The notes beneath the pieces were generated by a model. That model worked only from the letters and a program-made list of their open reading frames with translations, was not told the DNA's origin and ran no database searches. From a virus, in IMG/VR virus record IMGVR_UViG_3300044638_004201, positions 9,790 to 73,789 of that record: a stretch of 64,000 nucleotides of DNA, one strand, 5' to 3'. Of the stretch, positions 3,075 through 16,737 are shown piece by piece; within the stretch, counting starts at the first letter, position 1, and every line of letters starts with the position of its first letter. A program made the translations under genes and the position numbers.

Positions 3075-4130
3075 ATGGAAACTATGAAAGAGCGTTATGC
3101 TTCACTTAGTCCAAATCTCACACCTACATTGTGGGAAATGATTATTGAAGTTGCCACACAGGGAGTAAATGAAAATGCTTCACTTACACTCAACGCAAGC
3201 GTTGCCCCACAGGGTCGCTATGTTGAAAGAGCGATTGGTTCAGAGCGTGCGCCAAGAAACTCCAAACTGAAAATGGAACTTCCAAATGTTGAAGGACTTA
3301 TTGGTGCGGAAACTTACCTGCGTCCAAATGGTTCTGCCTACCACGCTCGTATGTGGGGAGAACACAAAGATGTGGAAGCCCTACGCAAAGCACGAGAAGC
3401 AACAACTCAATCTGTTCTTACAGGTGTTGGTTCTCCAATGTTCCCACTTCTTTATGGTGCGCCGGGGTGCGGAAAAACTGCGCTAGTTGAAGCGTCTTAT
3501 GGAAATGAAGTTATTACTCTTATGGGTAATGGCGACATTGAAGCCTCTGACCTAATTGGTTCTTATGTCCAAACTCCAAGTGGAAACTTTGAGTGGATTG
3601 ACGGCGGACTAATTCGGGCTATGGAAAATGGTTGGGTTTATTTCATTGACGAAATTGGTCTGATTGACCCAAAGGTTCTCGCACTTGTTTATGGTGCTAT
3701 GGACGGACGCCGAGAAATTGTTATCACTACAAACCCTGAGAGAGGTGTTGTCAAGGCACACGAAAACTTCTTCGTAGTTGCAGCGACAAATCCAAATGCT
3801 CCCGGAGTTCGTCTAAGTGAAGCGTTAGTATCTCGCTTTACTGTTCAGGCAGAAATGACAACTGATTGGGCACTTGCTCGTAAGTTAGGTGTGCCAACAC
3901 TTTTGGTAACTTCTGCTCAAAATCTTTATCGCAAACAACTTGCTAGAGAAGGTGTTTCTTGGTCTCCACAAATGCGAGAACTTCTTGCGTTTAGAGACAT
4001 AGCAATAACTTTCGGAACTTCGTTTGCGCTTTCCAACCTGATTGCTTCTGCCCCTGAAAACGATAGGGCAGTTGTCGCAGATGTTTTGTCTCGTGCCTTC
4101 GGGGAAGAGATGAAACCAGCCAAAATCTAA
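3075..4130 (+). CDS. MoxR/CbbQ/CobS-like AAA+ ATPase (AAA_5)
   Basis: Walker A GAPGCGKT, Walker B YFIDE, sensor ATNP, LSEALVSRF arginine finger. Confidence 0.9.
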   Translation: METMKERYASLSPNLTPTLWEMIIEVATQGVNENASLTLNASVAPQGRYVERAIGSERAPRNSKLKMELPNVEGLIGAETYLRPNGSAYHARMWGEHKDVEALRKAREATTQSVLTGVGSPMFPLLYGAPGCGKTALVEASYGNEVITLMGNGDIEASDLIGSYVQTPSGNFEWIDGGLIRAMENGWVYFIDEIGLIDPKVLALVYGAMDGRREIVITTNPERGVVKAHENFFVVAATNPNAPGVRLSEALVSRFTVQAEMTTDWALARKLGVPTLLVTSAQNLYRKQLAREGVSWSPQMRELLAFRDIAITFGTSFALSNLIASAPENDRAVVADVLSRAFGEEMKPAKI

Positions 4131-4213
4131 GTATCCCTGTCCTTAGGTTTTGGTTCGGGGAGTTGGGGATTGAGCGTGGTTCATTGGGTGTCCTTCGCTC
4201 TCCCCAACACCCC
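4118..4213 (+). ncRNA. Candidate two-hairpin RNA with C/U-rich loops
   Basis: 14-bp stem AGCCAAAATCTAAG/CTTAGGTTTTGGTT with loop TATCCCTGTC; second stem GGGGAGTTGGGGA-TT-GAGCG/CGCTC-TCCCCAAC-ACCCC with loop ending GTGTCCTT. Confidence 0.5.
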
Positions 4214-4294
4214 ACCTTTAGATTTGACAAGGAAAAGCAAAAAGTGTAGTATCTAATTGTTAGGTCGGAAGCCTGACAGAAAAGGGGAAATAAA

Positions 4295-6073
4295 ATGGCT
4301 CATCTAAAAATGGGTGAAACCAAAGCACAGGCTACTCCTGTTGAGTGGCTCAAAGTTGGTAGAGACATTGGCTACATGGCTAACAAGTGGTCTCTACGAG
4401 ATGATTTAGTTGCGTATGTTGGTCCGGGTGCTGGTGGTCCGGCACCTGCGTGCTACTCACCTACACAAGCAGAAGTTGAAGTAAATGTTGATGTTGCGTT
4501 TGCTAAAGGTATTACACCTGAGGAAATTGGCGACATAACACTTCGCAAAACACAATACGAGTTTCCTAAGGCGACAGGTGCGATTATGCACGAAGCCTTC
4601 CACGCTCGCTTCTCACAATGGTCTATGCCTAAGGCGTATGAGGAATTAGAGAAGGACGAATACAACGCACTTATTCTTTTAGAGGAAAGTCGCATTGAGT
4701 ATCAAGGTGTCAAGTCTCTATCTATCGCTCGTCCTTTCCTTCGTGCTTGCGCTATGGAAATTGTTATTGGCGATACAAAAGAAGGTATGGAAAACGAAAC
4801 ACAAACACAATCGCTAACTAATTTAGTTGGTCTTGTCTTTGCTCGCATTGACGCAGGTATCTTAGATGAACACGAAGTCTTTGCGATTACAGAAATGATT
4901 ACAGACCAACTTGGTGTAGATGTTGTTGAGCAACTACGAACAATCGCTCGTTCAGCACAAATGCACGACAACCACAAAGACGCCACAGAACTTTATCCAC
5001 TAGCAAAAGAGTGGGCACGAATTGTTCGTGAAACTGCTAAAGAGCGTGGAGATGAACAAAAGCCTGAAGGTAACAAAGGTATTCCTTCTGAAATCATGGA
5101 AGCAATCATGGAAGCGTTGTCTGAGGCTTCAGATGAAGTAATGGCAAACAACTTCTCCGACTTGGGCGACCAAGAGCAGGGTGAGGACATGAGAGAGGAA
5201 GTCAAGGCAAAAGCCTCTGACGCACAAGAGCAAAACGAAAATCGTGAAATTGCTAATCAAGTGTTCTCTAAATCTTCAGGGCCGGGGCAATCAAAAACCA
5301 ATAGCAAGTTGATTGAACAACGCCAACCAACAAGTGAAGAACTATCTGCCTCTGTTCGTATTGGACAATGGTTAGAGAAAGCAAAGTATCGTGAGCGAGA
5401 TGAACTACAAATCGCAAGCGTGCTTCCACCCGGACGCCTTCGCACTAGAGCAATCGTCCAAAATGCAGCCTTGAAATCTCGTGGAGTAAATCAGCGAGTA
5501 GAGCCTTTCCGTAGAACTGTTCGCAAACACACAGACGACCCAACACTCAATGTTGGAATTATGGTCGACATTTCAGGTTCAATGGGAAGTGCTATGAACC
5601 CTATGGCTACAACTGCGTGGGTAATGGCTAACGCAGTAAATCGTATTCAAGGAAACTGCGCTATGGTCTATTACGGAAATGATGTGTTCCCAACTCTAAA
5701 GGTTGGACAAAAACTTTCTGAAGTAAATGTTTATTCTGCTTCGGACGGAACTGAGAAGTTTAGTAAAGCGTTCTCAGCATTGGAAGGCGCACTTAACTTA
5801 CTTCACGGAAATGGCGCAAAGTTGTTGGTAATTGTTTCGGACGGAGAATACACTTCAGATGAAACAAGAAATGCCAAAGAGATTGTTGCCAAATGTAAAG
5901 AGGCAGGTGTCGCAATTTTATGGCTACCTTTTGATAATGGCAGAAGTGCGAAAGCGATTGGTGGAGATTATGCCGAAGTTGTTTTGGACATAAGCCGACC
6001 TGCGGAAGCCTCTGAAATTATTGGTCGTTCAGCAGAAAAAGTAATGACGAGAATTGGGCAACGAGTGGCGTAA
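4295..6073 (+). CDS. CobT-like VWA-domain protein with N-terminal HEXXH metallopeptidase-like domain
   Basis: HEAFH + downstream LEESRIE; MIDAS DISGS, ...GT..., VSDGE; adjacent to MoxR ATPase. Confidence 0.85.
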   Translation: MAHLKMGETKAQATPVEWLKVGRDIGYMANKWSLRDDLVAYVGPGAGGPAPACYSPTQAEVEVNVDVAFAKGITPEEIGDITLRKTQYEFPKATGAIMHEAFHARFSQWSMPKAYEELEKDEYNALILLEESRIEYQGVKSLSIARPFLRACAMEIVIGDTKEGMENETQTQSLTNLVGLVFARIDAGILDEHEVFAITEMITDQLGVDVVEQLRTIARSAQMHDNHKDATELYPLAKEWARIVRETAKERGDEQKPEGNKGIPSEIMEAIMEALSEASDEVMANNFSDLGDQEQGEDMREEVKAKASDAQEQNENREIANQVFSKSSGPGQSKTNSKLIEQRQPTSEELSASVRIGQWLEKAKYRERDELQIASVLPPGRLRTRAIVQNAALKSRGVNQRVEPFRRTVRKHTDDPTLNVGIMVDISGSMGSAMNPMATTAWVMANAVNRIQGNCAMVYYGNDVFPTLKVGQKLSEVNVYSASDGTEKFSKAFSALEGALNLLHGNGAKLLVIVSDGEYTSDETRNAKEIVAKCKEAGVAILWLPFDNGRSAKAIGGDYAEVVLDISRPAEASEIIGRSAEKVMTRIGQRVA

Positions 6074-6094
6074 GTCGTTCTTGCTCAAAAAGAA

Positions 6095-6194
6095 CTCTCG
6101 GTTCGGGTGCGTCCTTCCAACGCATTTCCCACCAAGAACCGAACCGAGAGCCTATGTAGGTGAAGCCCCACCCCCTTTTCGGGGCTTCACTTAC
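6095..6194 (+). ncRNA. Candidate two-hairpin RNA with anti-SD-like loops
   Basis: CTCTCGGTTCGG/CCGAACCGAGAG stem enclosing CCTTCCA and TTCCCACC; GTAGGTGAAGCCCC/GGGGCTTCACTTAC stem with loop ACCCCCTTTTC. Confidence 0.55.
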
Positions 6195-6225
6195 TCAACC
6201 AAAAAGTAAAAAGGGGAGAGACAAA

Positions 6226-6639
6226 ATGACATACGAAATTAAATACAACGCTATTGACCCTGACCCAGCGCAACAAGACGCAATCTTTTATACGGGCATG
6301 GGTTTAATTGCTACTGTGATTTGGGAAGGTTTCCATGTTGATGTTTATTGCGACGGAGAAACGAGAGTAAATCTTTTAGACGCACCACAAGGGCAAGTTG
6401 TTTCTAGTCTCTACAATCCTTCAGATTTTATTGAAGCAGGGCTGGATACAGATGACGCCTTGCGAGTGGCTAACGACCAAGAACTTCTTGATTGGGTAAA
6501 TAACTCTTGGTTTGATTTGTATTGCGAAGGCGAACACCTTGATGCGGTATCTCACGAACTCAATGAAGCCCTAGCCATAGCGACTAACTATGTGAAGCAA
6601 GAGTGGCAAAACTCTGAAGAACTTGACAAAGCGTTCTAA
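6226..6639 (+). CDS. Hypothetical protein
   Basis: Start moved to ATG 6226 behind AAGGGGAG RBS. Confidence 0.65.
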   Translation: MTYEIKYNAIDPDPAQQDAIFYTGMGLIATVIWEGFHVDVYCDGETRVNLLDAPQGQVVSSLYNPSDFIEAGLDTDDALRVANDQELLDWVNNSWFDLYCEGEHLDAVSHELNEALAIATNYVKQEWQNSEELDKAF

Positions 6640-6682
6640 ATATGATTTACTAAGCAAAGACTAGGAAAGGGGAAAAAGTAAA

Positions 6683-7216
6683 ATGCACACTTGTCATTTA
6701 CTGCTCATTGAAGCAGAGGACGCAGAAGAAGCAAAGGCAAAGGTTCAATCAGCGATTGAGCCTGAGGAAGGAAACTATCCGACTTGGTCTGATTGGCACG
6801 GCGGATTTGATGAAGGACTTGCTGGACGCTGGTCAGGTTTGTTTGAGGGCTGGGAAGAAAACAGAGATGTTCTTCAATACACCGAGAACAAGGTTCTTGC
6901 TGACGACATCATCAAACAATTTGTTGGTTATCGTTTAGAAGAAATGAAAAGCCTTCTAAGTCAGATTGAAACTGCTGGGGACTTTGATTTCAATACTTAT
7001 GTAAAAGCCTACGACCCATACAAGCAAGAGTTCAATGACGCAGGTATGAACCTTTGGCGGGCACAGAGCCTTGTAAAGATACTCAATAACGATTGGTGTC
7101 CTTACACATACATTTACGACATACAAGACTATACGGCGAACCTAGAGTATTTCAAGGCACGGCTGGAAACCGCACCTGAAAAACAATTCATTGTTCCTGT
7201 TGATTTTCACTACTAA
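6683..7216 (+). CDS. Hypothetical protein (WSDW..GRWSG ... VDFHY family)
   Basis: ORF track; GAAAGGGG RBS; promoter TTGACA 6623. Confidence 0.7.
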   Translation: MHTCHLLLIEAEDAEEAKAKVQSAIEPEEGNYPTWSDWHGGFDEGLAGRWSGLFEGWEENRDVLQYTENKVLADDIIKQFVGYRLEEMKSLLSQIETAGDFDFNTYVKAYDPYKQEFNDAGMNLWRAQSLVKILNNDWCPYTYIYDIQDYTANLEYFKARLETAPEKQFIVPVDFHY

Positions 7217-7232
7217 TAGAAACGGATAAAAA

Positions 7233-7373
7233 ATGGAAACCTGTAAGCATTGTGGCTGGGAAGTAAAACAAGATTTTGGCGTATGGATTGACGCTTGGGA
7301 ACACCCTGTTTGTTTTTGGGTAGGAGATGAGCCACGCCAACACGAACCAATAAAAAAGTTTGCACACGCATAA
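7233..7373 (+). CDS. Small Cys/His protein (CKHC...C...H)
   Basis: Read manually, 46 aa. Confidence 0.45.
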   Translation: METCKHCGWEVKQDFGVWIDAWEHPVCFWVGDEPRQHEPIKKFAHA

Positions 7374-7393
7374 CGGATAAGGAAAAAGTAAAA

Positions 7394-7642
7394 ATGAAAG
7401 TAAAAAATCTGATTGAACAATTACAGGCATACACACCTGATACTGAACTGATTGTTGCTTACTGGGATAAAGAAACAGTAGAAGGCTACGCCTCTGGCTG
7501 GGGCGAACAAGATAGGTTCGTGCTTACGGACGACCAATGGCTTGATGTTGTTGATAAGTATGATGACGGAGAGTGGCATTGGCAATCCTCTGCTGCACAA
7601 GATTTTACTGACATGGCTAGAGATGTTGTTGCTAGTGAGTAA
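7394..7642 (+). CDS. Hypothetical protein (MKVKNLIEQL family)
   Basis: ORF track; AAGGA RBS. Confidence 0.65.
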   Translation: MKVKNLIEQLQAYTPDTELIVAYWDKETVEGYASGWGEQDRFVLTDDQWLDVVDKYDDGEWHWQSSAAQDFTDMARDVVASE

Positions 7643-7799
7643 GACTTGGAAGGCTACCTTCGTATCCCACTTCGGAACTGAACTAGACGCTGATACCAAA
7701 AGAGAAGCAGAGACTAAAGCCCTTGCTTGGTTGCAGAACGAATACGGACACGACCTTGCTCGTGCCACAGAGTTTGATGTTGAAGTTGTTGAGGAGTAA
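7635..7799 (+). CDS. Small hypothetical protein
   Basis: GTG overlapping upstream stop, in frame with track ORF 7542..7799. Confidence 0.5.
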   Translation: MSKTWKATFVSHFGTELDADTKREAETKALAWLQNEYGHDLARATEFDVEVVEE

Positions 7800-7856
7800 T
7801 CTCTGCAAAGGCAAAAAGTAAAAACTCACCAAAATCGCTAGTCACGAAAGGGAACT

Positions 7857-8012
7857 ATGGACAACTTGGAGATGTATGCAAATGCCATGACTTGGTGGAA
7901 CTCAAAGACCCCTGAGCAGAAACTAAAGATTGTGGGAGTAGAAACTTTGGACAAATGGGTTGAAGGGATAGTCCGAAAGGAGTATCTCGCCCCTGCCGAA
8001 AGTGTGGTCTAA
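7857..8012 (+). CDS. Small hypothetical protein (51 aa)
   Basis: GAAAGGGA RBS; read manually. Confidence 0.5.
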   Translation: MDNLEMYANAMTWWNSKTPEQKLKIVGVETLDKWVEGIVRKEYLAPAESVV

Positions 8013-8018
8013 ATCACA
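8003..8018. promoter_or_regulatory. CRP/GlxR-like box upstream of promoter 8040
   Basis: TGTGG-TCTAAA-TCACA (1 mismatch to TGTGA-N6-TCACA). Confidence 0.55.
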
Positions 8019-8133
8019 TAAGATTTATGCCCTTTTGATTTGACAAGCGTAAGCCTACTCGTGTAAAGTCTGTTTTGTTAGGTCGGATACCTAATGAAGG
8101 ACAAAATGACAAACGAAAGAGGGAATTGGGCTT

Positions 8134-8520
8134 ATGCCTAGAACCGAAATCGCACAAGAGGTAGTAGTCAAAACTACTATCGCAGTAGCAACAAAGGAAG
8201 TAGCACTTGACGCTACAAACGCTGGCGCACTTATCGCAGAACTCAATGCGACAAAAGACGCAATCAAAACTGCTCAGGACAAGGCGAAAGCCCTTCAGGC
8301 AGACATTTATCCTCTACTTGGATACACACTCGTAAATGGTGAGTGGGTTGGCGAAGCAGAGGTTGGCACAATCGCTGGTAATGTTGTTGTGAAGGTCGCA
8401 ACAATCAACGCAACAAAGTTTGAGAAGGATAGACTTCTCAACGACAAGCCTGAACTCGCACCTGTGTTCGAGGCATACACAATCCCAGCCCCTTACAAGG
8501 CTATGAAAACAGGGAAGTAA
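8134..8520 (+). CDS. Hypothetical protein with coiled coil
   Basis: ORF track; own promoter and terminator. Confidence 0.65.
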   Translation: MPRTEIAQEVVVKTTIAVATKEVALDATNAGALIAELNATKDAIKTAQDKAKALQADIYPLLGYTLVNGEWVGEAEVGTIAGNVVVKVATINATKFEKDRLLNDKPELAPVFEAYTIPAPYKAMKTGK

Positions 8521-8530
8521 TTTCCAAAGG

Positions 8531-8562
8531 AAAAGCCCCTCACCTTCGGGTGGGGGGTTTTT
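8531..8562 (+). terminator. Intrinsic terminator
   Basis: GCCCCTCACC-TTCG-GGTGGGGGGT + T-tract. Confidence 0.85.
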
Positions 8563-8665
8563 CTATAAAGATGTTTGGCAAAAAGTAAAAATGGAAGTTA
8601 ATCAAATCTTCGAGGGAAACTACGAACAACTTGCGTAGAAAGGGAAAACCTGATAGGGTGCATTT

Positions 8666-9880
8666 ATGAAACCAACAGACGCACTAGACATACGCGCTAA
8701 CTTCAAGAGTAAGTGTGGCGATGCTCGATGGAAAGAAATAGTAAAACAAAACATTATGATTTCTTCAGGGGCAAAGTTTCTTGCAGGAAACTTGGTCTCT
8801 ATTCACCATAAGGACGAGAACACAACACTAAGAGAAAAAGCAATAGATGTTTATGTTCAGGACATTATTCGTGCTGGTTCTTCAGGAGAGTGCTTCTTCG
8901 TCAAAGATGAAATGACTGACCTTGTTCTCTTTGCTTCAGAGAAGTTAGATGAAACAGATTTATTTGACCCAACCCTTGCGCCGACAGATAAAGGGTTTGC
9001 TTACTTTGAGAAGCCTATCCCACTTACAGATGTTCGAGGTAGAACACTTTTCATAAATGTTATTACTTGGGAAAAACTATTCAACAAAACAACTGGTGAG
9101 TTTCAAGTAACTATGTCTTGCTGGAACGATACTGCAAGAACACCTGATGATGTTGCAGTTGAGATTATGTCTAACCCCGACAAAGACTATCAAGAGTTTG
9201 TAAGACAACTGGGTCGCTTCCAATGGATAAAGAGCCAAACTGTAAAGTCTGGAACTATTGTTGGTGCTAAGCAAATAGAACTAACAGAAGAACAGATGCA
9301 AGAAATTAGAGCAATCACTTTCCAAAATAGCCACGGGTTAGACAAGAGCGTGGAAGATGTTGATGGAACTAAAAAACTAATAGATAAAGTAGTCAAGGAC
9401 AACACACACAGAACAAAAGAAATTGGCGCACAAATACAAAGCAACTTGGGTTGGGATAAACTTACAGATGAGCAATGGGAAGAATACAGAAAAAGAGTAG
9501 TTACAAACCCTACAAACTTGGTGCGGATACTTCACGCTTACTGGCTACTTATGTCGCAGACGATTGTTGAAAAAGCAAAAGAAACTGGCGATAGAACACA
9601 ACGCAGAAGATTAGAACGCGAAAGTTGCCCAACAGAGGTTGTTGTTATTCAATTCCGCAAGCGTAAGTATTACAATGAAAAAGGCGAAGAAACTGAGGAC
9701 AGTAAAAAGATAGATTGGTCGCACAGGTGGTTGGTTGGTGGGCATTGGCGTTGGCAACCATACAAAGACCCTGCGAGTGGTGGGGAAATCAAAAAGCGTA
9801 TTTGGATTAGCCCTTATGTGAAAGGTCCGGAAGATAAACCTCTAGTGATGAAGGAAAGGGTTTATGTTCTCGCTAAATAA
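8666..9880 (+). CDS. Conserved phage hypothetical protein (C-terminal HRWxVxGHWR...WIxPxxKGP motif)
   Basis: ORF track; likely leaderless (TTGCGT 8631-17-TAGGGT 8654, ATG 8666). Confidence 0.7.
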   Translation: MKPTDALDIRANFKSKCGDARWKEIVKQNIMISSGAKFLAGNLVSIHHKDENTTLREKAIDVYVQDIIRAGSSGECFFVKDEMTDLVLFASEKLDETDLFDPTLAPTDKGFAYFEKPIPLTDVRGRTLFINVITWEKLFNKTTGEFQVTMSCWNDTARTPDDVAVEIMSNPDKDYQEFVRQLGRFQWIKSQTVKSGTIVGAKQIELTEEQMQEIRAITFQNSHGLDKSVEDVDGTKKLIDKVVKDNTHRTKEIGAQIQSNLGWDKLTDEQWEEYRKRVVTNPTNLVRILHAYWLLMSQTIVEKAKETGDRTQRRRLERESCPTEVVVIQFRKRKYYNEKGEETEDSKKIDWSHRWLVGGHWRWQPYKDPASGGEIKKRIWISPYVKGPEDKPLVMKERVYVLAK

Positions 9881-10203: not shown

Positions 10204-10205
10204 TA

Positions 10206-10376
10206 ATGGTAATCAAAGAAGTAGAGTTGGAATACACGCCAAACACTCTTGCTAAGTTGGTAAGAGATAACTACGGAAAAAATGCCGTTGAGTATTTGAT
10301 TGGCAGACTAACTAGCGTCATAGACGAAAGACAACTAAAAGTTTTGATTGACTATGAAAGAGGTAAAAATGGATAG
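10206..10376 (+). CDS. Small hypothetical protein (56 aa)
   Basis: Read manually; fills operon gap. Confidence 0.5.
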   Translation: MVIKEVELEYTPNTLAKLVRDNYGKNAVEYLIGRLTSVIDERQLKVLIDYERGKNG

Positions 10377-10602
10377 CATACTTCTCAGTAGAACTGTGAT
10401 GTTTGTTGGCGATTACTTTACGCTAATGACCACTATTGTCTTAGACGAAAAACTACGCAACGAAAATGAAAGCGACAATGACTTTGCGGTTCGTGTTGCC
10501 TCTATTTTTATGAACGAGTATTACGGATTTGATGTTGAGGCAGTATCTAATAGCATTGGTGTTGTTGATGAAAATGGAGATGAGGTAGAGGAAGATGTCT
10601 AA
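10369..10602 (+). CDS. Hypothetical protein
   Basis: GAGG RBS before ATG 10369. Confidence 0.55.
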   Translation: MDSILLSRTVMFVGDYFTLMTTIVLDEKLRNENESDNDFAVRVASIFMNEYYGFDVEAVSNSIGVVDENGDEVEEDV

Positions 10603-10939
10603 CCTTGACTTTCTAGTATCTATTACTGAAGCCATTGAAACTGGCAAAGTAGATAATCAACTGGACACGATTGCTAAAGCAATTCAAGAGCGAAAGAACT
10701 TGTTGCGAACAGGAGTATCCATAGACGACTTCTCCATTGGGGATAGGGTTGTTATCAACGAAAGATGTGGCACAAAGTATTTGCGTGGTGAAGTAGCGAC
10801 CATTGTTGGTATTCGCAGAACCAAGATAACAATTCAGTTTGATAACCCTTCGGGCAGATTTGTTCGCAAGAACTCAGACGGAACTATCTACTCCTCAGAT
10901 GTGGTTGTGCCGATTGAGATTGTTGATAGGAAAAAGTAA
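10595..10939 (+). CDS. Hypothetical protein with SH3/KOW-like C-terminus
   Basis: FSIGDRVVI...GEVATIVGI pattern. Confidence 0.6.
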   Translation: MSNLDFLVSITEAIETGKVDNQLDTIAKAIQERKNLLRTGVSIDDFSIGDRVVINERCGTKYLRGEVATIVGIRRTKITIQFDNPSGRFVRKNSDGTIYSSDVVVPIEIVDRKK

Positions 10940-10968
10940 AAAACCTAAAAGTATGTTAAAGTGGTAAC

Positions 10969-11072
10969 TCCTTAGGTGTGGGAGTTATCCCCCTTTCACC
11001 CACCCTGAGATGAGAGTGGCATACCCTTCCACTCCGCTAACCTCTTTCTCCCTGTCTGAGACTGGGGTTAGT
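10969..11072 (+). ncRNA. Candidate three-hairpin sRNA with anti-SD-like loops
   Basis: Extended -10 TGtTAAAGT (10954-10962); loops TTATCCCCCTTTC, CATACCCTT, (C)CCTGTCT on G-U-containing stems. Confidence 0.55.
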
Positions 11073-11158
11073 GTCTAGAACTACTTGACTTCTGTGCGGT
11101 TTATGTTATGTTATAAAATCTAAAATCACTTCTTACAGACCCCATTACTATTTTGTGT

Positions 11159-11404
11159 ATGGAAATTGTCTCTAAGGATTATCACCCAAATGGTTCGGCT
11201 GCACCTTTTATGATTGCGATTGTTGATGACCCTGCGGACGGGGACACTAAACTGGTAATAATGTTTGATGAAACTGACTATGTTGCGGTTTTATCACTTG
11301 ACTCTCTACAAAGAGACGAGGACATTTCAGCAAGAAACAATGGATACCACGGGGATAGATACGAAAGATTGCGTTTAGACTTGTGGGACGGGTTTGCTGG
11401 CTAG
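11159..11404 (+). CDS. Hypothetical protein
   Basis: In frame with track ORF 11153..11404. Confidence 0.55.
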   Translation: MEIVSKDYHPNGSAAPFMIAIVDDPADGDTKLVIMFDETDYVAVLSLDSLQRDEDISARNNGYHGDRYERLRLDLWDGFAG

Positions 11405-11441
11405 GCAAAAAGTAAAAACTTACGAGGGTTGAGGGTGCGCT

Positions 11442-12008
11442 GTGACTACGATTGCTGCTGTTCAGGGTGAAAACTGGGCTGTCGTTGGTTATGACTCACG
11501 AGTAACTGAAGAAAACGAAAAGATTTACACACTTCCAAAAGATAATGGGAAGTTATTTAAGAACGGGGCATACCTTATTGGGGTAGCCGGCGACATGAGG
11601 GCTATCAACTTATTATCATTTGTGTTCAAGCCGCCTGCAATAACACCAACAACTTATGGAGTTAAACTCGACAAGTTTATGACTGCCATTTTTATACCTG
11701 AACTGAAGAAATGCTTTGAGGACAACTCATACTCAAAAGATGGCGACCAAGATAGCCAAGTGATGGTTCTTATAAATGGAACTGTCTATGAGATTGGCAA
11801 CGACTATTCGTGGGCACGGGACGAGAGTGGGGTTTATGCCATTGGTTCTGGAAGTGCTTACGCTCTGGGTGCTTTGCTGGGGACTCTAGAAACAAGAAAG
11901 AGGACTCTGGCAACTGCCAAGACGCTAATCAGACAAGCATTGACTATCTCTGCCAAACTTGACCCTAACACAAGTGCGCCTATCTATATAAATGTGCAGC
12001 ATTTTTAA
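11442..12008 (+). CDS. HslV/proteasome-beta-like Ntn-hydrolase (threonine protease)
   Basis: M-TTIAA start giving N-terminal Thr, DSRVT, GVAGD, AIGSGSAYALGAL. Confidence 0.85.
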   Translation: MTTIAAVQGENWAVVGYDSRVTEENEKIYTLPKDNGKLFKNGAYLIGVAGDMRAINLLSFVFKPPAITPTTYGVKLDKFMTAIFIPELKKCFEDNSYSKDGDQDSQVMVLINGTVYEIGNDYSWARDESGVYAIGSGSAYALGALLGTLETRKRTLATAKTLIRQALTISAKLDPNTSAPIYINVQHF

Positions 12009-12235
12009 TACCTAGTTAAGGCAAACTACAAACAACTTCTGTGCTGTGAGGACCGGCGTGCCGTAGATTTTTACTTTTTGCTGATGCACTGCTGCCGCTG
12101 CTGGTGACCTTCTGGAATTGTTGGTAGTCGTTAATACCTGGTTGAACAACCTATGAAACGATTTGCGTTAGCCCTTGTAAAAATAATTTGCGACACTACT
12201 TGACTTGCCTATCCTAAAATGCTATCCTTCAGTTA

Positions 12236-12312
12236 TTCGGTAGGGGGAAGTCGCTGGTCACCTGAACGCCTATAACTTGCAAGGGGCGGAAACAATACGA
12301 CTCCCTACCGAA
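12236..12312 (+). ncRNA. Structured 5' leader / small RNA
   Basis: TTCGGTAGGG(GGA)AGTCG...CGACTCCCTACCGAA closing stem starting at the TSS of promoter TTGACT 12200/TATCCT 12223. Confidence 0.45.
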
Positions 12313-12328
12313 CCTAAAAGGGGGAAAA

Positions 12329-12559
12329 ATGGATTCAGTAGAGTTTGACGAGTTTGGCAGAGTTTATCTTCGCCCAACTTATTACGCGGGTCGTGGTATT
12401 GCGGGGCCGGGTAGAACACCAACAAAAATAAACACAAAGATTCGTTTCTGCGTTATCTGCGAAAAGAAACTTTCTATTTACAACACCGACAAAGATAATG
12501 TTTGCTTTAGCGATACCTGCGAAAAAAAGTTTCAAGACTCAAAAAAGAATAAGAAATAA
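12329..12559 (+). CDS. Zn-finger-like hypothetical protein
   Basis: CVIC...CFSDTC; AAGGGGG RBS. Confidence 0.55.
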   Translation: MDSVEFDEFGRVYLRPTYYAGRGIAGPGRTPTKINTKIRFCVICEKKLSIYNTDKDNVCFSDTCEKKFQDSKKNKK

Positions 12560-12623
12560 TACTTGACTTTACTTTGGTAAAGTGTTACACTTGCTACAAC
12601 AACAACTTACAGGGGGTAAGTAA

Positions 12624-12752
12624 ATGTCCGACATGATTCTAAAGCACCTAGCACTCTATGCGAGTGGCAAGGTTGTCCCTATTTGCGGTGAGTGCGAGAA
12701 AGCACTTACACCCAATGAAATTGGGTATGGACACGATTGTGAGGTAGCGTAA
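12624..12752 (+). CDS. Small CxxC...HxC protein (42 aa)
   Basis: Read manually; AGGGGG RBS; promoter TTGACT 12563. Confidence 0.5.
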   Translation: MSDMILKHLALYASGKVVPICGECEKALTPNEIGYGHDCEVA

Positions 12753-12985
12753 TGAACACTATCTCAATGAGTTATCACTTGCGTGGAAACTTTTATCCAC
12801 CACTACCACTTGACTATGCAGAACCTGCTATCAAGGCTTGGGAGTTTTATCAAGAAGAAAACTATGATGCGGTAGTCGTATTACCTGCCGACATAGTGCC
12901 TCACCCTGCTACTGCCGTAAAGACAGATGCTGGTTGGGAAATAACTGCTAGCGAACTTGTAAGAATACTTAGATTGGATAGGTAA
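12752..12985 (+). CDS. Hypothetical protein
   Basis: ORF track; TAATG coupling. Confidence 0.6.
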   Translation: MNTISMSYHLRGNFYPPLPLDYAEPAIKAWEFYQEENYDAVVVLPADIVPHPATAVKTDAGWEITASELVRILRLDR

Positions 12986-13302
12986 TGAGCACACTAACAG
13001 AAGTATTTGATACTTTGGTAAAAGAAAGAGTTAGCGAGGCTAAGGCTATTGCCTTTGATACTTGCCACAAGATTTATCTGCTTATGGACAATGAACAGGT
13101 AGAACTAATGAGAACTTATGGCTACGACCCACTTATTACTAAAGAAGATGCCACACCTGATGTAATGCTTGCGACACTGCAAGAGTGGTATGAAGATTCT
13201 TGCGGGCTTAGATTTATTGAAGCGGTTAGCACTAATCACGAAAATCCTAATGCTGGATTCGAAACCCTAATTGGTCAAGGAGATTTTGCTGAAGACGACT
13301 AA
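12985..13302 (+). CDS. Hypothetical protein (FDTCHKIY family)
   Basis: ORF track; TAATG coupling. Confidence 0.65.
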   Translation: MSTLTEVFDTLVKERVSEAKAIAFDTCHKIYLLMDNEQVELMRTYGYDPLITKEDATPDVMLATLQEWYEDSCGLRFIEAVSTNHENPNAGFETLIGQGDFAEDD

Positions 13303-13314
13303 CAAACAATTAGA

Positions 13315-13342
13315 AATGCCCCGCCTAGTGCGGGGTATTTTT
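13315..13342 (+). terminator. Intrinsic terminator
   Basis: ATGCCCCGC-CTAGT-GCGGGGTAT + T-tract. Confidence 0.8.
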
Positions 13343-13486
13343 ATTTAATTTGCAGTGGGACGCTGTGGCAAAAAGTAAAAACCTGCAATAGCGCCCAGTG
13401 CATTTGCACACTACAAACAATTTGAGAAGTCTAAAATCCCAGAAACCCTGACCCAAATGATGTGAAGACAAAACGGACATTTTGCC

Positions 13487-13502
13487 TGTGAAATAGGTCA
13501 CA
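13487..13502. promoter_or_regulatory. Perfect CRP/GlxR consensus box
   Basis: TGTGA-AATAGG-TCACA. Confidence 0.65.
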
Positions 13503-13578
13503 AAAATAATCCATTGAGAAATGCCTACCTCAATCGTCATAAGAGGTAGAGGGAAAAACAGAAAGGAGGAAAGCCTCA

Positions 13579-13671
13579 ATGGAAAAGACACTACAACAGA
13601 AACTAGACGAACTAAGTAAAGCCTTAGAACCTGTCCTGTGGGATTTGCTAGATGAAGTGGAGAAAGACTAA
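13579..13671 (+). CDS. Small protein (30 aa)
   Basis: GAAAGGAGG RBS; read manually. Confidence 0.5.
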   Translation: MEKTLQQKLDELSKALEPVLWDLLDEVEKD

Positions 13672-13744
13672 GAGTCATTGACTTTTGGCTTACTTAATCG
13701 TCGTTAATAAGTAGAGGGATAAATAATCCCAAGAGGAGGAAGAA

Positions 13745-13912
13745 ATGCTAAAACTGAAACAAACAAGAAAGGCAAGAAAGCAATACGAGCCAGAAGATGA
13801 GTTAGTGCTAGTAATGGACACACCTGACCTAGACGCTATGGAACACGAAGCCTTTAGGCTCAACACGGAAGTTTGGCTAGATGAAGTCTTAGGTTTGGGT
13901 GGGGGTGAATAA
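13745..13912 (+). CDS. Small protein (55 aa)
   Basis: GAGGAGG RBS; read manually. Confidence 0.5.
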   Translation: MLKLKQTRKARKQYEPEDELVLVMDTPDLDAMEHEAFRLNTEVWLDEVLGLGGGE

Positions 13913-13980
13913 AAGGTATTTGACTTTTGTTTAGAGATGTAGTAAGATTAACTTATCAAAGAAGGAAGGGGGTGAAATAA

Positions 13981-14205
13981 ATGATTTCTTTCGGAGATTT
14001 TGTAAATTGGGTAGAGCCTAATGGCAACTACGAGAACTACTGTATTCAATGCGGACGCAAGACAGGTAAGAACGCTTACCTAGTAAATGTATCCACAGGT
14101 GGTGCGGTGCTACACCCAGCCAGCGAAGCAGACTCACAGGGGTTCTGGAACATAGGCAGAGAGTGTGCCAAAGAGTTTGATAAAGCGGTTCTGGTCAAGA
14201 ACTAA
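13981..14205 (+). CDS. Zn-binding hypothetical protein
   Basis: CIQC...GREC; own promoter (13920) and terminator (14225-14251). Confidence 0.6.
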   Translation: MISFGDFVNWVEPNGNYENYCIQCGRKTGKNAYLVNVSTGGAVLHPASEADSQGFWNIGRECAKEFDKAVLVKN

Positions 14206-14371
14206 AGCCCAACAGATTTTAGAGAAGCCCCCGTTGATGCGGGGGTTTTTTCTTTGGCAACTATAAACAACTTGGTCAAATCGAGGGCCCGGTGGTGCAT
14301 TAGCAAAAAGTAAAAACTCTCCTTCAGATCCGCTGCAAGTAAAAACAACTTGGGTTGTTTGCTGAAGGGAC

Positions 14372-14401
14372 TTGACAAATGTCAGGAAGGTTTGATAGTA
14401 T
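14372..14401 (+). promoter_or_regulatory. Promoter with GTCAGGAAGG operator in spacer (repeated at 14667 and 15277)
   Basis: TTGACAAATGTCAGGAAGGT-TGATA duplicated at 14372 and 14667. Confidence 0.65.
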
Positions 14402-14426
14402 GTGGATACCTAAGAAGGGGGAACTT

Positions 14427-14660
14427 ATGTTTAGAGATTGGCTATTCGGTGATTTCAAATACGCATACCGAACAACGAAGGTAGAGAAGATTATCTATAA
14501 GAAAATCGCTTTAGTAGTTATTGCGGTTCTGTTCATTATGATAATGATTGACGCCTCTGCTCTAGGTCTTGTTCTGTTCTTTGGTCTTGGCTGGTATGCC
14601 AAGCAAAAGTATGACTTGAAAAAGAAAGTAGTGCGTAAGCGCAAGAAAAAAGTTTCATAA
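14427..14660 (+). CDS. Membrane protein
   Basis: Two hydrophobic segments, basic tail; AAGGGGG RBS. Confidence 0.6.
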   Translation: MFRDWLFGDFKYAYRTTKVEKIIYKKIALVVIAVLFIMIMIDASALGLVLFFGLGWYAKQKYDLKKKVVRKRKKKVS

Positions 14661-14719
14661 GCCGATTTGACAAATGTCAGGAAGGTATGATAAACTCTCC
14701 ATAGAAAGGGGAAATACAA

Positions 14720-15253
14720 ATGAACACTTCTCCACAAGATGAAGCACTAGAACTACTAGAAACAAAAATAGCACCACGCTCTTATACGATTGACTATCCA
14801 AAAGAATTGTGGTCTGAGTTATTGCCCGGCTTATGGCAGGGTGGAACTGATGATGACGACATTTATGACCAACTAGCAACGCCAGCAATTACAAAAAAGA
14901 ACTTTGATTTTGTGATTACAGCCTACGCTTGGGCTAATCCTGTTGATTGGTTTGTCAAGGAAATCCGTTTCGGATTTTATGACAGCGACATGGCAGACTT
15001 TGACCCAAATGATTTACAAGGAATTGTTCGTATGGCTCACGCAGAGTGGAAGCGAGGACAGCGTGTCCTTATTCGTTGCCAAGCAGGTATGAACCGAAGT
15101 GGTCTAATTATGGCTCTAGTCCTTATTCGTGAGGGCTACACGCCACAAGAAGCGATTGACTTGATACGGGCTAAGAGAAGCAAGCACGCCTTGTTCAATG
15201 GTCGCTTTGAGAAGTGGCTGAGTGAAGTTGATGTTTCGGCGTGGAGAAACTAA
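14720..15253 (+). CDS. Dual-specificity / protein-tyrosine phosphatase
   Basis: P-loop VLIRCQAGMNRSG (CX5R), SELLPGLWQG, AIDLIRAKR. Confidence 0.9.
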   Translation: MNTSPQDEALELLETKIAPRSYTIDYPKELWSELLPGLWQGGTDDDDIYDQLATPAITKKNFDFVITAYAWANPVDWFVKEIRFGFYDSDMADFDPNDLQGIVRMAHAEWKRGQRVLIRCQAGMNRSGLIMALVLIREGYTPQEAIDLIRAKRSKHALFNGRFEKWLSEVDVSAWRN

Positions 15254-15350
15254 GACACGCCGAAAGTCAGGAAGGTTTGACAAAAGGTCAGGAAGGCTGT
15301 AATCTTAGGGTATTGACTAGGAAAGTCAATAGAAAAGGGAGAAAGACAAA

Positions 15351-15506
15351 ATGAAAACAGAAGCAAAGTTTATTAGACGCAGAATTGCCGTTGGACTTAT
15401 TTTGCTTGCTTTGTTCGCTTGGGCTCTTGACGCTACTACACCTGAGATGTGTAAAGTGCCGACAGAACAAATGAATCAATTTTGTTTAGACCTGTTGTAT
15501 CCATAA
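15351..15506 (+). CDS. Small membrane/secreted protein (51 aa)
   Basis: RRR + hydrophobic stretch; RBS AAGGGAG; read manually. Confidence 0.5.
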   Translation: MKTEAKFIRRRIAVGLILLALFAWALDATTPEMCKVPTEQMNQFCLDLLYP

Positions 15507-15527
15507 TAACTAAAGGGGGTAGTAATA

Positions 15528-15779
15528 ATGTCAGGTTGGAGAACTAAAAAAGCAAATGCTTTAGCAAAAAGAGAAGCCTCTTTTATCAAAAGCAGAGAAA
15601 GACTTAGCACACCTCGTGCGGAGTTTTTACTAAAGTTTGCTTTTATGAGTGATGAGCAGTTTGAGAAATGGTCTGAACTAAAGACAAGTGCCGAAGCAAG
15701 AGCCTTTATGGAAGCACTACCAATGCCTCAAATAAAAACAAATGAAGTGTTTATCAAACTAGACAAAGAAGAAAGATAG
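15528..15779 (+). CDS. Hypothetical protein
   Basis: AAAGGGGG RBS. Confidence 0.55.
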   Translation: MSGWRTKKANALAKREASFIKSRERLSTPRAEFLLKFAFMSDEQFEKWSELKTSAEARAFMEALPMPQIKTNEVFIKLDKEER

Positions 15780-15792
15780 GGAAAAAGTAAAA

Positions 15793-16284
15793 ATGAAGAA
15801 ATGTATAAATGCTACTTGCGAAAGCACGGAGTTAGTTTATTCAGGCGTAGATGCGTTCTTGCTTGGTGGTATTGAAACAGAGAAGTGGTGCTACACCTGC
15901 GCCAATGCGATTGCTTTATCTAACAGGAAGGAAGAATCAAATGTTGCTTGATAATGGAACAATGTTCGCAATAATTATTGCGCTTGCGGGTTCATGCTTT
16001 GTTATGGTTGTTGGTATCAGAGCGCAAGGTAAGTTGATACGGGAGAACAACAGACTTCGTAAAGAACTAACTGAACTTCACTACGAGAAGGTGAAGGGAG
16101 GAATCTAATGGAAGAAACTAATGTAATGCTTGACCCAATGGATTGCGGTCTTGCCTGTCAGTTTGAGTGGATAGAAGTATCATCAAACTTCTTCAGCGTT
16201 GCTGTCTATACACCTGCGTTGATAGTTGGTGTGCTTTCTTATTTCATCTACAAAGCGATAAAAAAGAAGAAACGAAAGGCGTAA
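15793..16284 (+). CDS. Three small overlapping ORFs (15793-15951 Cys-rich; 15941-16108 and 16108-16284 single-TM)
   Basis: Read manually; coupled start/stop codons. Confidence 0.45.
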
Positions 16285-16291
16285 TTCAGAA

Positions 16292-16495
16292 GTGGCAAAA
16301 AGTAAAAAGATAGAGATTGATGCTGCAAAGTTATACAACTCTGGTCTTGCCATAGATGATGTGGCTGAAGAACTTGGTGTCTGTTATAGGACAGCGAGGA
16401 AAGCGATTCGTAGTAGTGGAGTTGTTTTGAGAGACCCTTCAGCCCGTCTCAGAGGTAGAACTAGCCCTAAAAGAAAGAAGGCAGGAAATGAATAA
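16292..16495 (+). CDS. Helix-turn-helix DNA-binding protein
   Basis: LYNSGLAIDDVAEELGVCYRTARKAI HTH pattern. Confidence 0.75.
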   Translation: MAKSKKIEIDAAKLYNSGLAIDDVAEELGVCYRTARKAIRSSGVVLRDPSARLRGRTSPKRKKAGNE

Positions 16496-16643
16496 TCTCA
16501 ATGTAGTTTGGTCTGCGGTAGTTGCCAGCGTGGCATCTGCGCTCGCTGTTGTAATGGCTATCTGGGGAGACTCAGATGTGTCCTTAGCCCTCGGCGCTGT
16601 GGCGATTACTTCGGCTGTTCTGTCCATAAGGGAGAAACCTTAG
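16488..16643 (+). CDS. Small two-TM membrane protein
   Basis: Read manually; hydrophobic. Confidence 0.5.
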   Translation: MNNLNVVWSAVVASVASALAVVMAIWGDSDVSLALGAVAITSAVLSIREKP

Positions 16644-16681
16644 GACTTGATTTCCTGTCAATAGTATGACATAATGAAGTT

Positions 16682-16737
16682 GGACTAGAGGCTCTCTGAC
16701 ACAAACCTTCCCCCGTCAGAGGGTCTCTATTCTTTTG
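16682..16737 (+). ncRNA. Candidate single-hairpin sRNA with C-rich loop
   Basis: Promoter TTGATT 16647-17-CATAAT 16670; 15-bp stem TAGAGGCTCTCTGAC/GTCAGAGGGTCTCTA, loop ACAAACCTTCCCCC; T-rich tail. Confidence 0.6.

Follow-up and report, generated by a model that had tools for sequence, protein, structure and literature searches.

Strong hairpins lie between genes at four loci of this uncultured lake phage, the hosts of which are actinobacteria, and the question is whether they only end transcripts or carry a function in their loops. A preliminary description had taken them for a multi-copy set of small RNAs with anti-Shine-Dalgarno (SD) loops that silence host mRNAs or time phage gene classes; its observations were confirmed in part, and its interpretation is supported in part. 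In the window (the whole stretch of 64,000 nucleotides analysed), strong hairpins were indeed found at all four loci, each immediately 3' of a + strand stop codon. The fold energies of loci 1 to 4 on the + strand are -49, -55.9, -46.5 and -31 kcal/mol, with z-scores of -6.0, -8.1, -3.4 and -3.9, versus -3.5, -4.2, -0.4 and -1.0 on the - strand. The hairpins are real and + strand-specific, and the strand preference claimed earlier is borne out by these values.

Of the eight apical loops, seven are of large size (7-16 nt) and have a pyrimidine content of about 75%; summed over these seven, 70 of 93 nt are C or U and 9 are G, versus 45% C+U in the intergenic background. The C/U-richness ascribed to all loops therefore holds for seven, but not for hairpin 1b (4157..4213, +). 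The long stem of 1b is rich in G on the 5' side and in C on the 3' side, and a conserved UGGGUGUCC motif, UGGGUG(U/C), is located in the apical part of the hairpin. Other terminators and intergenic hairpins of this phage genome have ordinary tetraloops (UUCG, GCAA, UGAU), and hence the large C/U loops represent a special subset, not a genome-wide habit.

The elements start 0-25 nt 3' of stop codons, and the hairpin clusters have a stop codon on one side and a promoter-like site of the following unit (4224, 11085, 16747) on the other; the cluster of locus 2 precedes a repeated AAAAAGTAAAAA motif (6201). No conserved promoters were present directly 5' of the hairpins in the relatives compared. 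Two loci had been credited with promoter-like boxes of their own, of which only one weak site could be retrieved, TTGATT-17-CATAAT (16647-16675), which is not conserved in relatives. Because the elements lie just past stop codons and upstream of the next promoter, without conserved promoters of their own, they are assigned to the 3' UTRs of early mRNAs with predicted transcript ends, and not to stand-alone sRNA genes as had been supposed. Most hairpins of the set lack a U-tract, and only hairpin 4 has a terminator-like one; they probably also act as terminators or 3' stabilisers.

The hairpins described below were identified by folding. At locus 1, hairpin 1a (4118..4155, +; apical 12 nt GUAUCCCUGUCC) spans the stop codon (4128-4130) of a MoxR-like AAA ATPase gene. 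Downstream of hairpin 1b, a sigma-70-type promoter-like site (TTGACA-17-TAGTAT; 4224..4252, +) precedes the VWA transcription unit, the predicted mRNA of which has a 5'-terminal hairpin (4259..4277, +; loop UCGGAAG) followed by the SD region GAAAAGGGG (4279..4287, +; ATG 4295). The gene itself (4295..6073, +) encodes a VWA-domain (CobT-like) protein, with Pfam VWA_CoxE/VWA matches below curated cut-offs; its homologue in phage DSL-LC01 is annotated 'cobalamin biosynthesis protein'. On its 3' side lie element 2a (6095..6150, +), a long outer stem around an inner hairpin with loop (G)UCCUUCCA(A) (6112-6119), and hairpin 2b (6156..6194, +), with a 14-bp stem, an 11-nt loop ACCCCCUUUUC (6170-6180) and no U-tract after it.

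Complementary elements thus sit in both UTRs of the VWA gene, as loop 2b and the SD region are exactly complementary to each other. Both are fully unpaired; for the SD region, the opening energy in the ensemble is 0.02 kcal/mol. Duplexes between SD and loop of -13 to -15.9 kcal/mol, the latter for loop 2b with the ribosome-binding sites (RBSs) of the VWA and ATPase genes, are stronger than the -8.8 kcal/mol of the SD with a 16S tail that was assumed and not read from the host, and the opening energy of both partners is about 0. Loop 2a and the loop at the top of the 5'-terminal hairpin share complementarity over 7-9 nt in lineages L005, L009 and L011 and over 5+2 nt in the window, where this kissing pair is weak (-6.8 kcal/mol versus an opening cost of about 4 kcal/mol).

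Locus 3 comprises hairpin 3a (10971..11009, +) with a 16-nt loop AGUUAUCCCCCUUUCA (10983-10998), hairpin 3b (11014..11034, +; loop CAUACCCUU) and hairpin 3c (11035..11072, +; apical region UUUCUCCCUGUCUGA), followed by a promoter-like site TTGACT-16-TATGTT (11085..11112, +). The best of 63 RBSs for loop 3a is that of gene 9949 (-18.3 kcal/mol), a gene that probably opens the unit ending at this locus. Hairpin 4 (16682..16739, +) has a 15-bp stem and a 14-nt loop ACAAACCUUCCCCC (16701-16714), then UAUUCUUUUGG; the unit after it has a promoter-like site TTGACA-17-TATTGT (16747..16775, +) and GAAAGGGGAAG as its first RBS (ATG 16798).

All RBS matches listed in the preliminary description are present: GAAAAGGGG at 3058 and 4279, 9-mers at 9933, 12316 and 15512, GGAAGGAC at 40918, and AAGGACA at 8097 and 40920. 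When tested against composition-matched shuffles, complementarity beyond composition was clear for two loops only, ACCCCCUUUUC (2b, 6170-6180) and UUAUCCCCCUUUCA (3a, 10983-10998), both with P<=0.001; for each of them, 15 RBSs are matched by 7 nt or more (versus 2.2 in shuffles for 2b and about 2 expected for 3a). The excess is marginal for loops 2a and 4 (P about 0.04), and loops 1a, 1b, 3b and 3c do not exceed the shuffles, even though 11 nt of hairpin 3c are complementary to the RBS at 15336. In the window, the RBS of the own unit is not the best target for loops 1a, 1b, 3c and 4. Anti-RBS hexamers occur 9.6 times per kb of intergenic sense sequence versus 3.0 expected, and 4.0 times per kb of coding sequence.

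Comparison with related phages, about 14 lineages with protein identities of 42-76%, revealed that loops are retained while stems are replaced, as had been anticipated. In an alignment (A1) of nine sequences of element 2a, 7 of 19 pairs are changed on both sides with an invariant loop, and 97% of cells are paired versus 30-41% with the partner slid; the selection at the RNA level postulated earlier is borne out by such compensatory changes. These are also seen in the stem of the VWA 5'-terminal hairpin, the loop of which (YGGAAG) is kept, and TTGACA boxes are conserved at the place of the VWA promoter. Loop 3a and the 3b motif AUACCCUU are kept on other stems in L045 and L044, and at locus 4 an ACCUUCC loop is found on a different stem in L054, with other loops in L050-L055. 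Every relative has the stop-codon hairpin 1a, and in most of them its loop is C/U-rich; the loops match own-operon RBSs in L027 (10 nt), L023 and L026 (8 nt), L029 (8-11 nt) and L016; in this window no such match was found. The 1b motif YUGGGUG(U/C) is kept in L005, L013, L016, L020 and L035. Some relatives have plain tetraloop terminators at homologous places, and the loops are therefore dispensable.

The loops follow the RBS flavour of each lineage. In particular, the loops of the VWA 3' UTR co-vary with the VWA 5' leader, in pairings of 8-13 nt that involve lineage-specific sequences: GAAAAGGGG in the window and L005, CAAAGGGG in L003, GUUCGGAAG in L011, GAGAAAAGG in L021, CUGGAAGGA in L016, UGACGGAAGGAC in L035, AACGAAAGGAAA in L027, GAAAGGAACGGAA in L029, and AGGACAAGUAAAC in DSL-LC01, where it is unique in 41.8 kb. 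The VWA leader ranks first among the 6-16 leaders of the locus in 13 of 16 lineages, the exceptions being L023, L026 and L008. Cognate 5'/3' pairs exceed permuted ones both in summed longest match (120 versus 88 +/- 5.8, P<1e-5) and in summed energy (-194 versus -149 +/- 10, P about 1e-4). In the window and L027 the target sequence is common to several RBSs, so that action in cis and in trans is inseparable there. The proposed silencing of host mRNAs finds no support, since matches run 12-13 nt into the phage-private leader outside the SD core (L027, L029, L035, DSL-LC01), and in most cases the hairpin's own transcription unit provides, in its 5' leader, the best-matched target.

On the basis of the observed structures and their conservation, the accessibility of the loops, the complementarity and the co-variation of 5' and 3' partners, we propose, with a probability of about 55%, that the anti-RBS loops of the 3' UTRs bind to 5' leaders, either of their own early mRNA or of a sister one, in the manner of icaR mRNA. 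The stems would hold out single-stranded loops resembling the anti-SD sequence, which would pair with the purine-rich ribosome-binding leaders of early phage mRNAs, that of the own unit first. In the VWA unit, loop 2b would cover the SD, and loop 2a (GUCCUUCCAA) would kiss the 5'-terminal hairpin loop. After synthesis of the 3' end, the 30S subunit would have to compete with this pairing, giving less initiation and probably faster decay, which would cap the output per mRNA. As some loops mirror the phage's own RBSs, their base-pairing probably damps translation; we infer that pairing takes place in the cell, is mainly intramolecular and is repressive.

Action in trans on a shared early RBS tag is possible, and we tentatively consider a network in which the hairpins titrate (G)AAAGGGG(A), and perhaps the late-gene GGAAGGAC sites, either as accumulating exonuclease-resistant 3' fragments of early mRNAs or as products of weak promoters of their own; this would amount to an RNA-only timer of early-gene shut-off. 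The RBSs matched by loops 2b and 3a mostly belong to genes that come first after a TTGACA promoter; AAGGGG is present at 10 of the 14 genes of this kind, and mean duplex energies are better for early RBSs (-10.5 and -10.8 kcal/mol) than for late ones (-7.2 and -7.9 kcal/mol). Loop 2a forms its best duplexes with the capsid RBS at 40918 (-15.5) and the RBS at 54758 (-16.1), and a 12-nt target is present at four RBSs in L027. The weak promoter-like site at locus 4 has its predicted start at the base of the hairpin, with the U-tract on the 3' side, and Actinobacteria have C-rich-loop sRNAs pairing with G-rich targets. However, the hairpins lack conserved promoters, and the longest matches are exclusive to the own unit's leader (L029, L035, DSL-LC01, L011, L016), a feature for which a general silencer has no need.

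The location at unit ends, the U-tracts on hairpin 4 and on the second hairpins of L023, L026 and L029, the composition-level complementarity of four loops and the plain terminators of some relatives would fit ordinary intrinsic terminators or 3' stabilisers, with C/U-richness and RBS matches as by-products of a functionless loop. This is unlikely, as loops are conserved on replaced stems at loci 2, 3 and 4, the 5'/3' co-variation is significant, the U-tract is missing from most hairpins, loops of 7-19 nt cost energy, and tetraloops are what the ordinary terminators of these genomes have. It is more improbable that the loops are bound by an RNA-binding protein of the host or the phage (e.g. 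S1- or KH-type) controlling stability or termination, with an incidental anti-SD likeness. AUACCCUU (3b), CCCUGUC (1a, 3c) and UGGGUG (1b) are conserved without a convincing RBS partner in the window, but a fixed site should stay constant, while the VWA 3' loops change with each lineage's leader; no candidate protein was identified. Finally, the segments formally are 8-13-bp inverted repeats flanking one gene, and might be mobile-cassette ends or recombination sites in the DNA around the VWA gene. This is very hard to reconcile with an ATPase-VWA order fixed in 33 of 33 loci, a left copy that is a working RBS, a right copy always in an apical hairpin loop, the G-U pairs and better + strand fold, and the lack of a recombinase gene near the VWA gene.

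A published description of such phage elements was not found in the literature. The elements can be compared with several known systems. In 6C RNA (Rfam RF01066; M. tuberculosis B11), C-rich-loop hairpins pair with G-rich targets, with no known chaperone. The phage elements have similar loops and hosts of the same phylum; however, 6C RNA is encoded by its own, stand-alone gene on the chromosome and has a conserved sequence, whereas the phage hairpins are in 3' UTRs and have unrelated stems, and the 6C model gave no match in an Rfam search, even at E<=5. The SAS/ESAS of cluster K mycobacteriophages are reportedly stereotyped sequences around the RBS of a gene subset, described as upstream tags only, comparable to the (G)AAAGGGG(A) of this phage and the AACGACGAAAGGACAA of DSL-LC01; we know of no description of a complementary loop-displayed partner at mRNA 3' ends. 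The hok mRNA is inhibited by fold-back and becomes translationally active only after trimming at the 3' end. In B. subtilis hbs mRNA, a 14-bp pairing of 5' and 3' UTRs shields an RNase Y site and leaves the SD uncovered, thus protecting and not repressing (PMC5737220). In both mRNAs, as proposed here, pairing of the ends governs access of ribosome or RNase, but neither has loop-displayed anti-SD motifs.

A close likeness is with icaR mRNA of S. aureus, the 3' UTR of which contains a C-rich UCCCCUG motif that binds the SD of that transcript, thereby blocking initiation and making an RNase III substrate (PMC3868564). The phage 3' UTRs likewise have an anti-SD-like sequence complementary to the SD or leader of their own unit, and L011 even shows UCCCCUG in a loop. 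In contrast to icaR, the phage motif is exposed in the loops of hairpins, of which a UTR often has two; it is found at several units, recurs across the phage family and varies together with the RBS extensions specific to each lineage. In B. subtilis mRNAs, an RBS can be bound by anti-SD-like 8-mers that lie hundreds of nt further downstream, with the result that initiation is inhibited and decay is promoted; native genes avoid such sequences, which are depleted there (Gill et al. 2025, PMC12697547). The phage loops are also pyrimidine-rich and anti-SD-like, but in the phage such sequences are enriched 3-fold in intergenic sense sequence and conserved, which suggests that they are used deliberately. 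By analogy, the icaR and B. subtilis precedents indicate that 3' anti-SD pairing is a mechanism that can work.

The virus contig totals 73.8 kb and is estimated to be 55% complete, the window covering its bases 9790–73789; the G+C content of the phage is 43%. Encoded in the window are a portal protein, a family A DNA polymerase and an HslV-like peptidase, as well as a MoxR-like AAA ATPase (3075–4130) and a VWA-domain protein (4295–6073); a search of the window for tRNA and tmRNA genes gave none. Megablast with a 9-kb query returned no nucleotide matches to deposited or cultured phages, and relatives could be identified at the protein level only. Closest among them is 'Actinomycetia phage DSL-LC01', a metagenome-assembled genome (PMC10611076), at 73% for the portal and 46% for the VWA protein, followed by phages of Microbacterium, Arthrobacter and Gordonia. 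Since the protein relatives are actinophages, DSL-LC01 is metagenome-assembled and the DNA runs containing the phage stretch derive from lake water, we infer that this is an uncultured freshwater actinophage. The 55% of the genome covered by the contig contains no WhiB gene that could serve as a host marker, and the host assignment therefore rests on protein similarity to actinophages.

Strong hairpins were found at all four loci, beginning at or just past stop codons on the + strand: 1a (4118–4155) and 1b (4157–4213) at locus 1, 2a (6095–6150) and 2b (6156–6194) at locus 2, 3a (10971–11009), 3b (11014–11034) and 3c (11035–11072) at locus 3, and hairpin 4 (16682–16739) at locus 4. The + strand RNA folds better than its complement (z-scores of -6.0, -8.1, -3.4 and -3.9 for loci 1–4, versus -3.5, -4.2, -0.4 and -1.0), and an inverted repeat with a role at the DNA level is very unlikely. 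Promoter-like sites whose TTGACA box is perfect or nearly so lie 3' of the clusters at 4224, 11085 and 16747, and at locus 2 an over-represented 12-mer, AAAAAGTAAAAA, comes next in place of such a site. With a stop codon just before them and a promoter-like site or this 12-mer after them, the hairpin clusters lie, by position, where short early transcription units have their 3' ends. The preliminary description had given two loci promoter boxes of their own, as for separate small RNA genes. Only at locus 4 is there a promoter-like site (16647–16675), which is weak and unconserved in relatives, plus a U-tract; the other loci start right behind stop codons. A G+C-rich hairpin followed by a U-tract, as in intrinsic terminators, is seen only in hairpin 4 (UAUUCUUUUGG), and there is no U-tract behind hairpins 1a, 1b, 2a, 2b and 3a–c. 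U-less terminators are reported for Actinobacteria, so that hairpins free of a U-tract may terminate too, and the hairpins may well act also as terminators or stabilisers. Rho utilisation sites were dismissed by reasoning, as the loops are too short and embedded in strong stems.

The asymmetric 12-mer AAAAAGTAAAAA is present in 18 exact copies, or 22 with at most one mismatch versus 2.3 expected (window 494–19796 and 62824–62835). Nearly all copies run along the local direction of transcription, many of them 0–35 nt 5' of start codons (1890, 6201, 6673, 7383, 8580, 11407, 15782), and relatives have it in corresponding positions (GCAAAAAGTAAAAA). Candidate roles are a stoperator-like repressor site, a promoter element specific to the phage, or a signal for translation. 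Elsewhere, the 18-nt loop of a unit-end hairpin (2508–2555) includes TTGACA, the -35 box of the promoter that follows (2532), an arrangement also seen 5' of the VWA gene in three related phage loci (L023, L026 and L029).

The loops of the hairpin set are 7–16 nt long. Seven of them are C/U-rich as first described (75% pyrimidine and 10% G, versus 45% pyrimidine in intergenic sequence), the exception being 1b, whose loop carries a conserved UGGGUG motif. A pairing of this motif with CACCA, a conserved segment in element 2a, was discarded, as by eye the registers do not fit. A census of local hairpins showed tetraloops in the other intergenic ones (UUCG at 8529–8564, GCAA at 43079 and UGAU at 14222, and on the - strand GCAA at 20183 and 20484), and the remaining intergenic regions of the contig yielded no further members of the set.

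Early genes have in common a stereotyped RBS, (G)AAAGGGG(A), and this applies most of all to the gene that comes first after each TTGACA promoter. Reverse complements of common RBS hexamers occur on the intergenic sense strand at 9.6 per kb versus 3.0 expected, and in coding sequence at 4.0 per kb. The loop-to-RBS matches listed in the preliminary description are all present in the sequence. When each loop was compared with shuffles of the same composition, counting RBS matches of at least 7 nt, complementarity was clear for loops 2b (ACCCCCUUUUC) and 3a (UUAUCCCCCUUUCA), with 15 RBSs each versus about 2 in shuffles (P ≤ 0.001), and marginal for 2a and 4 (P about 0.04), and for 1a, 1b, 3b and 3c it did not exceed that of the shuffles. 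Anti-RBS loops thus exist in kind, and are carried by part of the set rather than the whole. A rule by which every window loop addresses its own unit was rejected, as it holds for 2b and 3a (with 3b near the top) and fails for 1a, 1b, 3c and 4. An 11-nt match of loop 2a at 18292 is not significant, as chance would give about 0.3 in 128 kb.

With the VWA protein as query, 33 related loci were retrieved (42–76% identity), and in all 33 hairpins are kept in both intergenic regions flanking the VWA gene. The element behind this gene could be aligned for nine sequences from six lineages as an inner hairpin enclosed by a long outer stem, in which 7 of 19 pairs show changes on both sides and 97% of the cells pair, versus 30–41% after shifting the 3' partner; the loop reads CCUUCC(A)A throughout. 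Distant lineages have other stems at this position, with loops that are again pyrimidine-rich (GUCCCCUUUC, UUCCGUUCCUUUC, UUCCUUUCCUUUCGUU and UUGUCCUUUAC). Two other lineages (L045 and L044) also have a cluster of three hairpins corresponding to locus 3, where the stems are entirely different, the first two loops, UCCCCCCUUUCU and AAUACCCUU..., are kept and the third varies; the remaining relatives of this locus (L038–L044 at that position) have plain tetraloop terminators. At locus 4 an ACCUUCC loop sits on another stem in L054, and unrelated loops were found in L050–L055. Conservation of loops over changing stems, named beforehand as the supporting pattern, was therefore found at the post-VWA element, at locus 3 and, for locus 4, in L054. 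The anti-RBS loop device is dispensable, as some relatives carry plain terminators at the homologous place.

The VWA gene has its own promoter-like site, and the start predicted from it (about 4259) coincides with the opening base of a 5'-terminal hairpin (loop UCGGAAG) that is followed downstream by the SD GAAAAGGGG; the loops of its 3' UTR are 2a (GUCCUUCCAA) and 2b. From lineage to lineage, complementarity of these 3' loops to the leader of their own gene is maintained via differing sequences. The paired leader segment is the SD itself (GAAAAGGGG) in the window and in L005, and the loop of the 5' hairpin in L005 (GUUGGAAG) and L011 (GUUCGGAAG). It lies in the SD region in L021 (GAGAAAAGG), L003 (CAAAGGGG), L016 (CUGGAAGGA), L035 (UGACGGAAGGAC), L027 (AACGAAAGGAAA) and L029 (GAAAGGAACGGAA, ending at the start codon), and in DSL-LC01 the paired leader segment is a 5'-proximal sequence unique in 41.8 kb (AGGACAAGUAAAC). 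Matches are 9 nt long in the window and 8–13 nt in 13 of 16 lineages, and when the 6–16 gene leaders of a locus are ranked as partners of the VWA 3' loops, the VWA leader comes first in 13 of 16 lineage representatives. Permutation of the 5' and 3' partners over 14 lineages gave a summed longest match of 88 ± 5.8 versus 120 observed (P < 1e-5), and a summed duplex energy of -149 ± 10 versus -194 kcal/mol observed (P about 1e-4). The hairpin at the ATPase stop codon matches RBSs of its own operon over 10 nt in L027, 8 nt in L023 and L026, 8–11 nt in L029 and 7 nt in L016; the window has no such match. The ATPase (3055–3077) and VWA (4276–4297) initiation regions share nearly the same sequence for some 20 nt (AGAAAAGGGGAAA(A)UAAAAUGG), which suggests that translation of these two partner proteins is matched.

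In the window, both the SD and loop 2b are essentially unpaired (opening energies of 0.02 and 0.03 kcal/mol), and their 9-bp duplex amounts to -13 kcal/mol. For the 22-nt RBS segment the duplex with the loop reaches -15.9 kcal/mol, versus -8.8 with an assumed 16S tail of generic actinobacterial type. The contact of 2a with the 5' loop is weak in the window (-6.8 kcal/mol versus an opening cost of about 4 kcal/mol) and stronger in L005, L009 and L011. A cis pseudoknot of 2b with the SD at 6209 (AAAAGGGG, 8 nt), which belongs to the gene that follows, was rejected as a general mechanism, because the match is lost in L005 and L013/14/32.

Our preferred reading, with a probability of roughly 0.55, is that early mRNAs have a built-in limiter in the form of cognate 5'-3' pairing, because the loop duplex beats the assumed 16S tail and bacterial precedents exist in icaR and in B. 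subtilis. A stable stem would hold the anti-SD-like loop open on the mRNA that carries the target SD, and the loop is predicted to out-compete the ribosome's own anti-SD, whereupon initiation should drop. In the window and in L027 the target is the shared RBS tag, and there cis and trans action are not separable by sequence. A network or timer acting in trans is a live, if tentative, alternative, since loops 2b and 3a prefer early over late RBSs and loop 2a has the capsid RBS as its best partner. Rather doubtful is an RNA-only timer, in which the 3' hairpins of tagged early mRNAs shut the early regulon in cis and in trans, free of a protein repressor. Promoter-proximal early genes would bear a private RBS tag, and the 3' hairpins of the same early mRNAs would show its complement; with these hairpins resisting exonucleases, early transcripts and their 3' fragments would build up until translation of the tagged regulon is turned off. 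A second loop class (GUCCUUCC) may, within such a timer, hold back late structural mRNAs.

That the hairpins are plain terminators with functionless loops is improbable: the U-tract of hairpin 4, the only one in the set, agrees with it, whereas loop conservation, loop size and 5'-3' co-variation disfavour it. Some loops could instead bind protein, which would account for conserved loops that have no RBS partner (AUACCCUU and UGGGUG).

Of the words sampled from the 9-kb query (window 2400–11400), 10–20% are present in four metatranscriptome runs. Their contigs show 93–99% identity to window 1–20000, some spanning hairpins plus promoters (3906–4444 and 10779–11143), and, being contigs, carry no ends, strand or levels, may reflect DNA carry-over and give no information on discrete small RNAs. 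The deepest ones (8073–8512 and 8042–8526, depth about 35, lake runs X17 and X18) belong to the unit behind promoter 8040, and span from near its predicted start to just 5' of the UUCG terminator at 8529–8564, although contigs cannot prove transcript ends.

Other leaders also drew attention. That of a lysozyme-like gene at 17098 (16900–17097) measures about 200 nt and shows conservation in relatives at 60–69% protein identity, with invariant blocks UCUCCCCA(A/G)NG(A/C)GGGUGG and GUCCCC(U/A)AACAAAGGAA just 5' of the start codon and anti-SD-like CCCC runs adjoining the SD; it looks like a structured cis-regulatory RNA. The leader 12235–12320 of the gene at 12329 contains a long conserved hairpin (GGUAGGGGGAAGUCGCUGGUCACCUGAACG ... 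CGACUCCCUACC), also found in L044 and L045. In DSL-LC01 (record 18–44 kb) the early region is extremely modular, with more than 25 genes that each have their own promoter (ATTCTAAAG(A/T)TGTTATAAT), a leader of stereotyped sequence (AACGACGAAAGGACAA) and, as terminator, a GC-rich hairpin with a tetraloop. Two intergenic tRNA-like folds lie at 10766–10955 and 11440–11524 in the coordinates of the DSL-LC01 locus (L036), for which the feature table shown has no RNA gene.

If the favoured pairing is real, it would offer phages a compact, protein-free route to dose or time early genes, and a natural set of orthogonal RBS/anti-RBS pairs whose co-variation across lineages is already documented, in a feature now filed as 'terminators' in phage genome annotation. 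The proposed Rfam search gave no family at the gathering score in the 64 kb, and the covariance model of 6C RNA (RF01066) had no match in 1–19000 even at E ≤ 5. As no Rfam family matches, the hairpins are not 6C RNA, although the working mode may be alike. Phage 3'-UTR hairpins with anti-SD loops were not found described in the full-text literature, in which bacterial precedents were found; only a handful of cases of bacterial 3'-UTR regulation are known, e.g. icaR and hbs. In CpxQ/DapZ-type regulation a stable 3' fragment accumulates and acts on other mRNAs; the phage RNA is seen here as contigs, which show neither ends nor levels. Pairing of the UCCCCUG motif in the icaR 3' UTR has been shown to lower initiation (PMC3868564). 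The VWA unit shares the sequence hallmark of this type, a 3'-UTR anti-SD-like motif complementary to the SD or leader of its own unit; initiation block and an RNase III substrate are further icaR hallmarks, and for the phage the physical pairing is predicted from thermodynamic estimates. In B. subtilis, anti-SD-like 8-mers hundreds of nucleotides from the RBS lower initiation and promote decay, and such sequence can silence from anywhere in an mRNA (PMC12697547). Genes normally avoid it (PMC12697547), whereas the phage family appears to use it deliberately, displayed in loops at mRNA ends and kept matched to lineage-specific ribosome-site tags.
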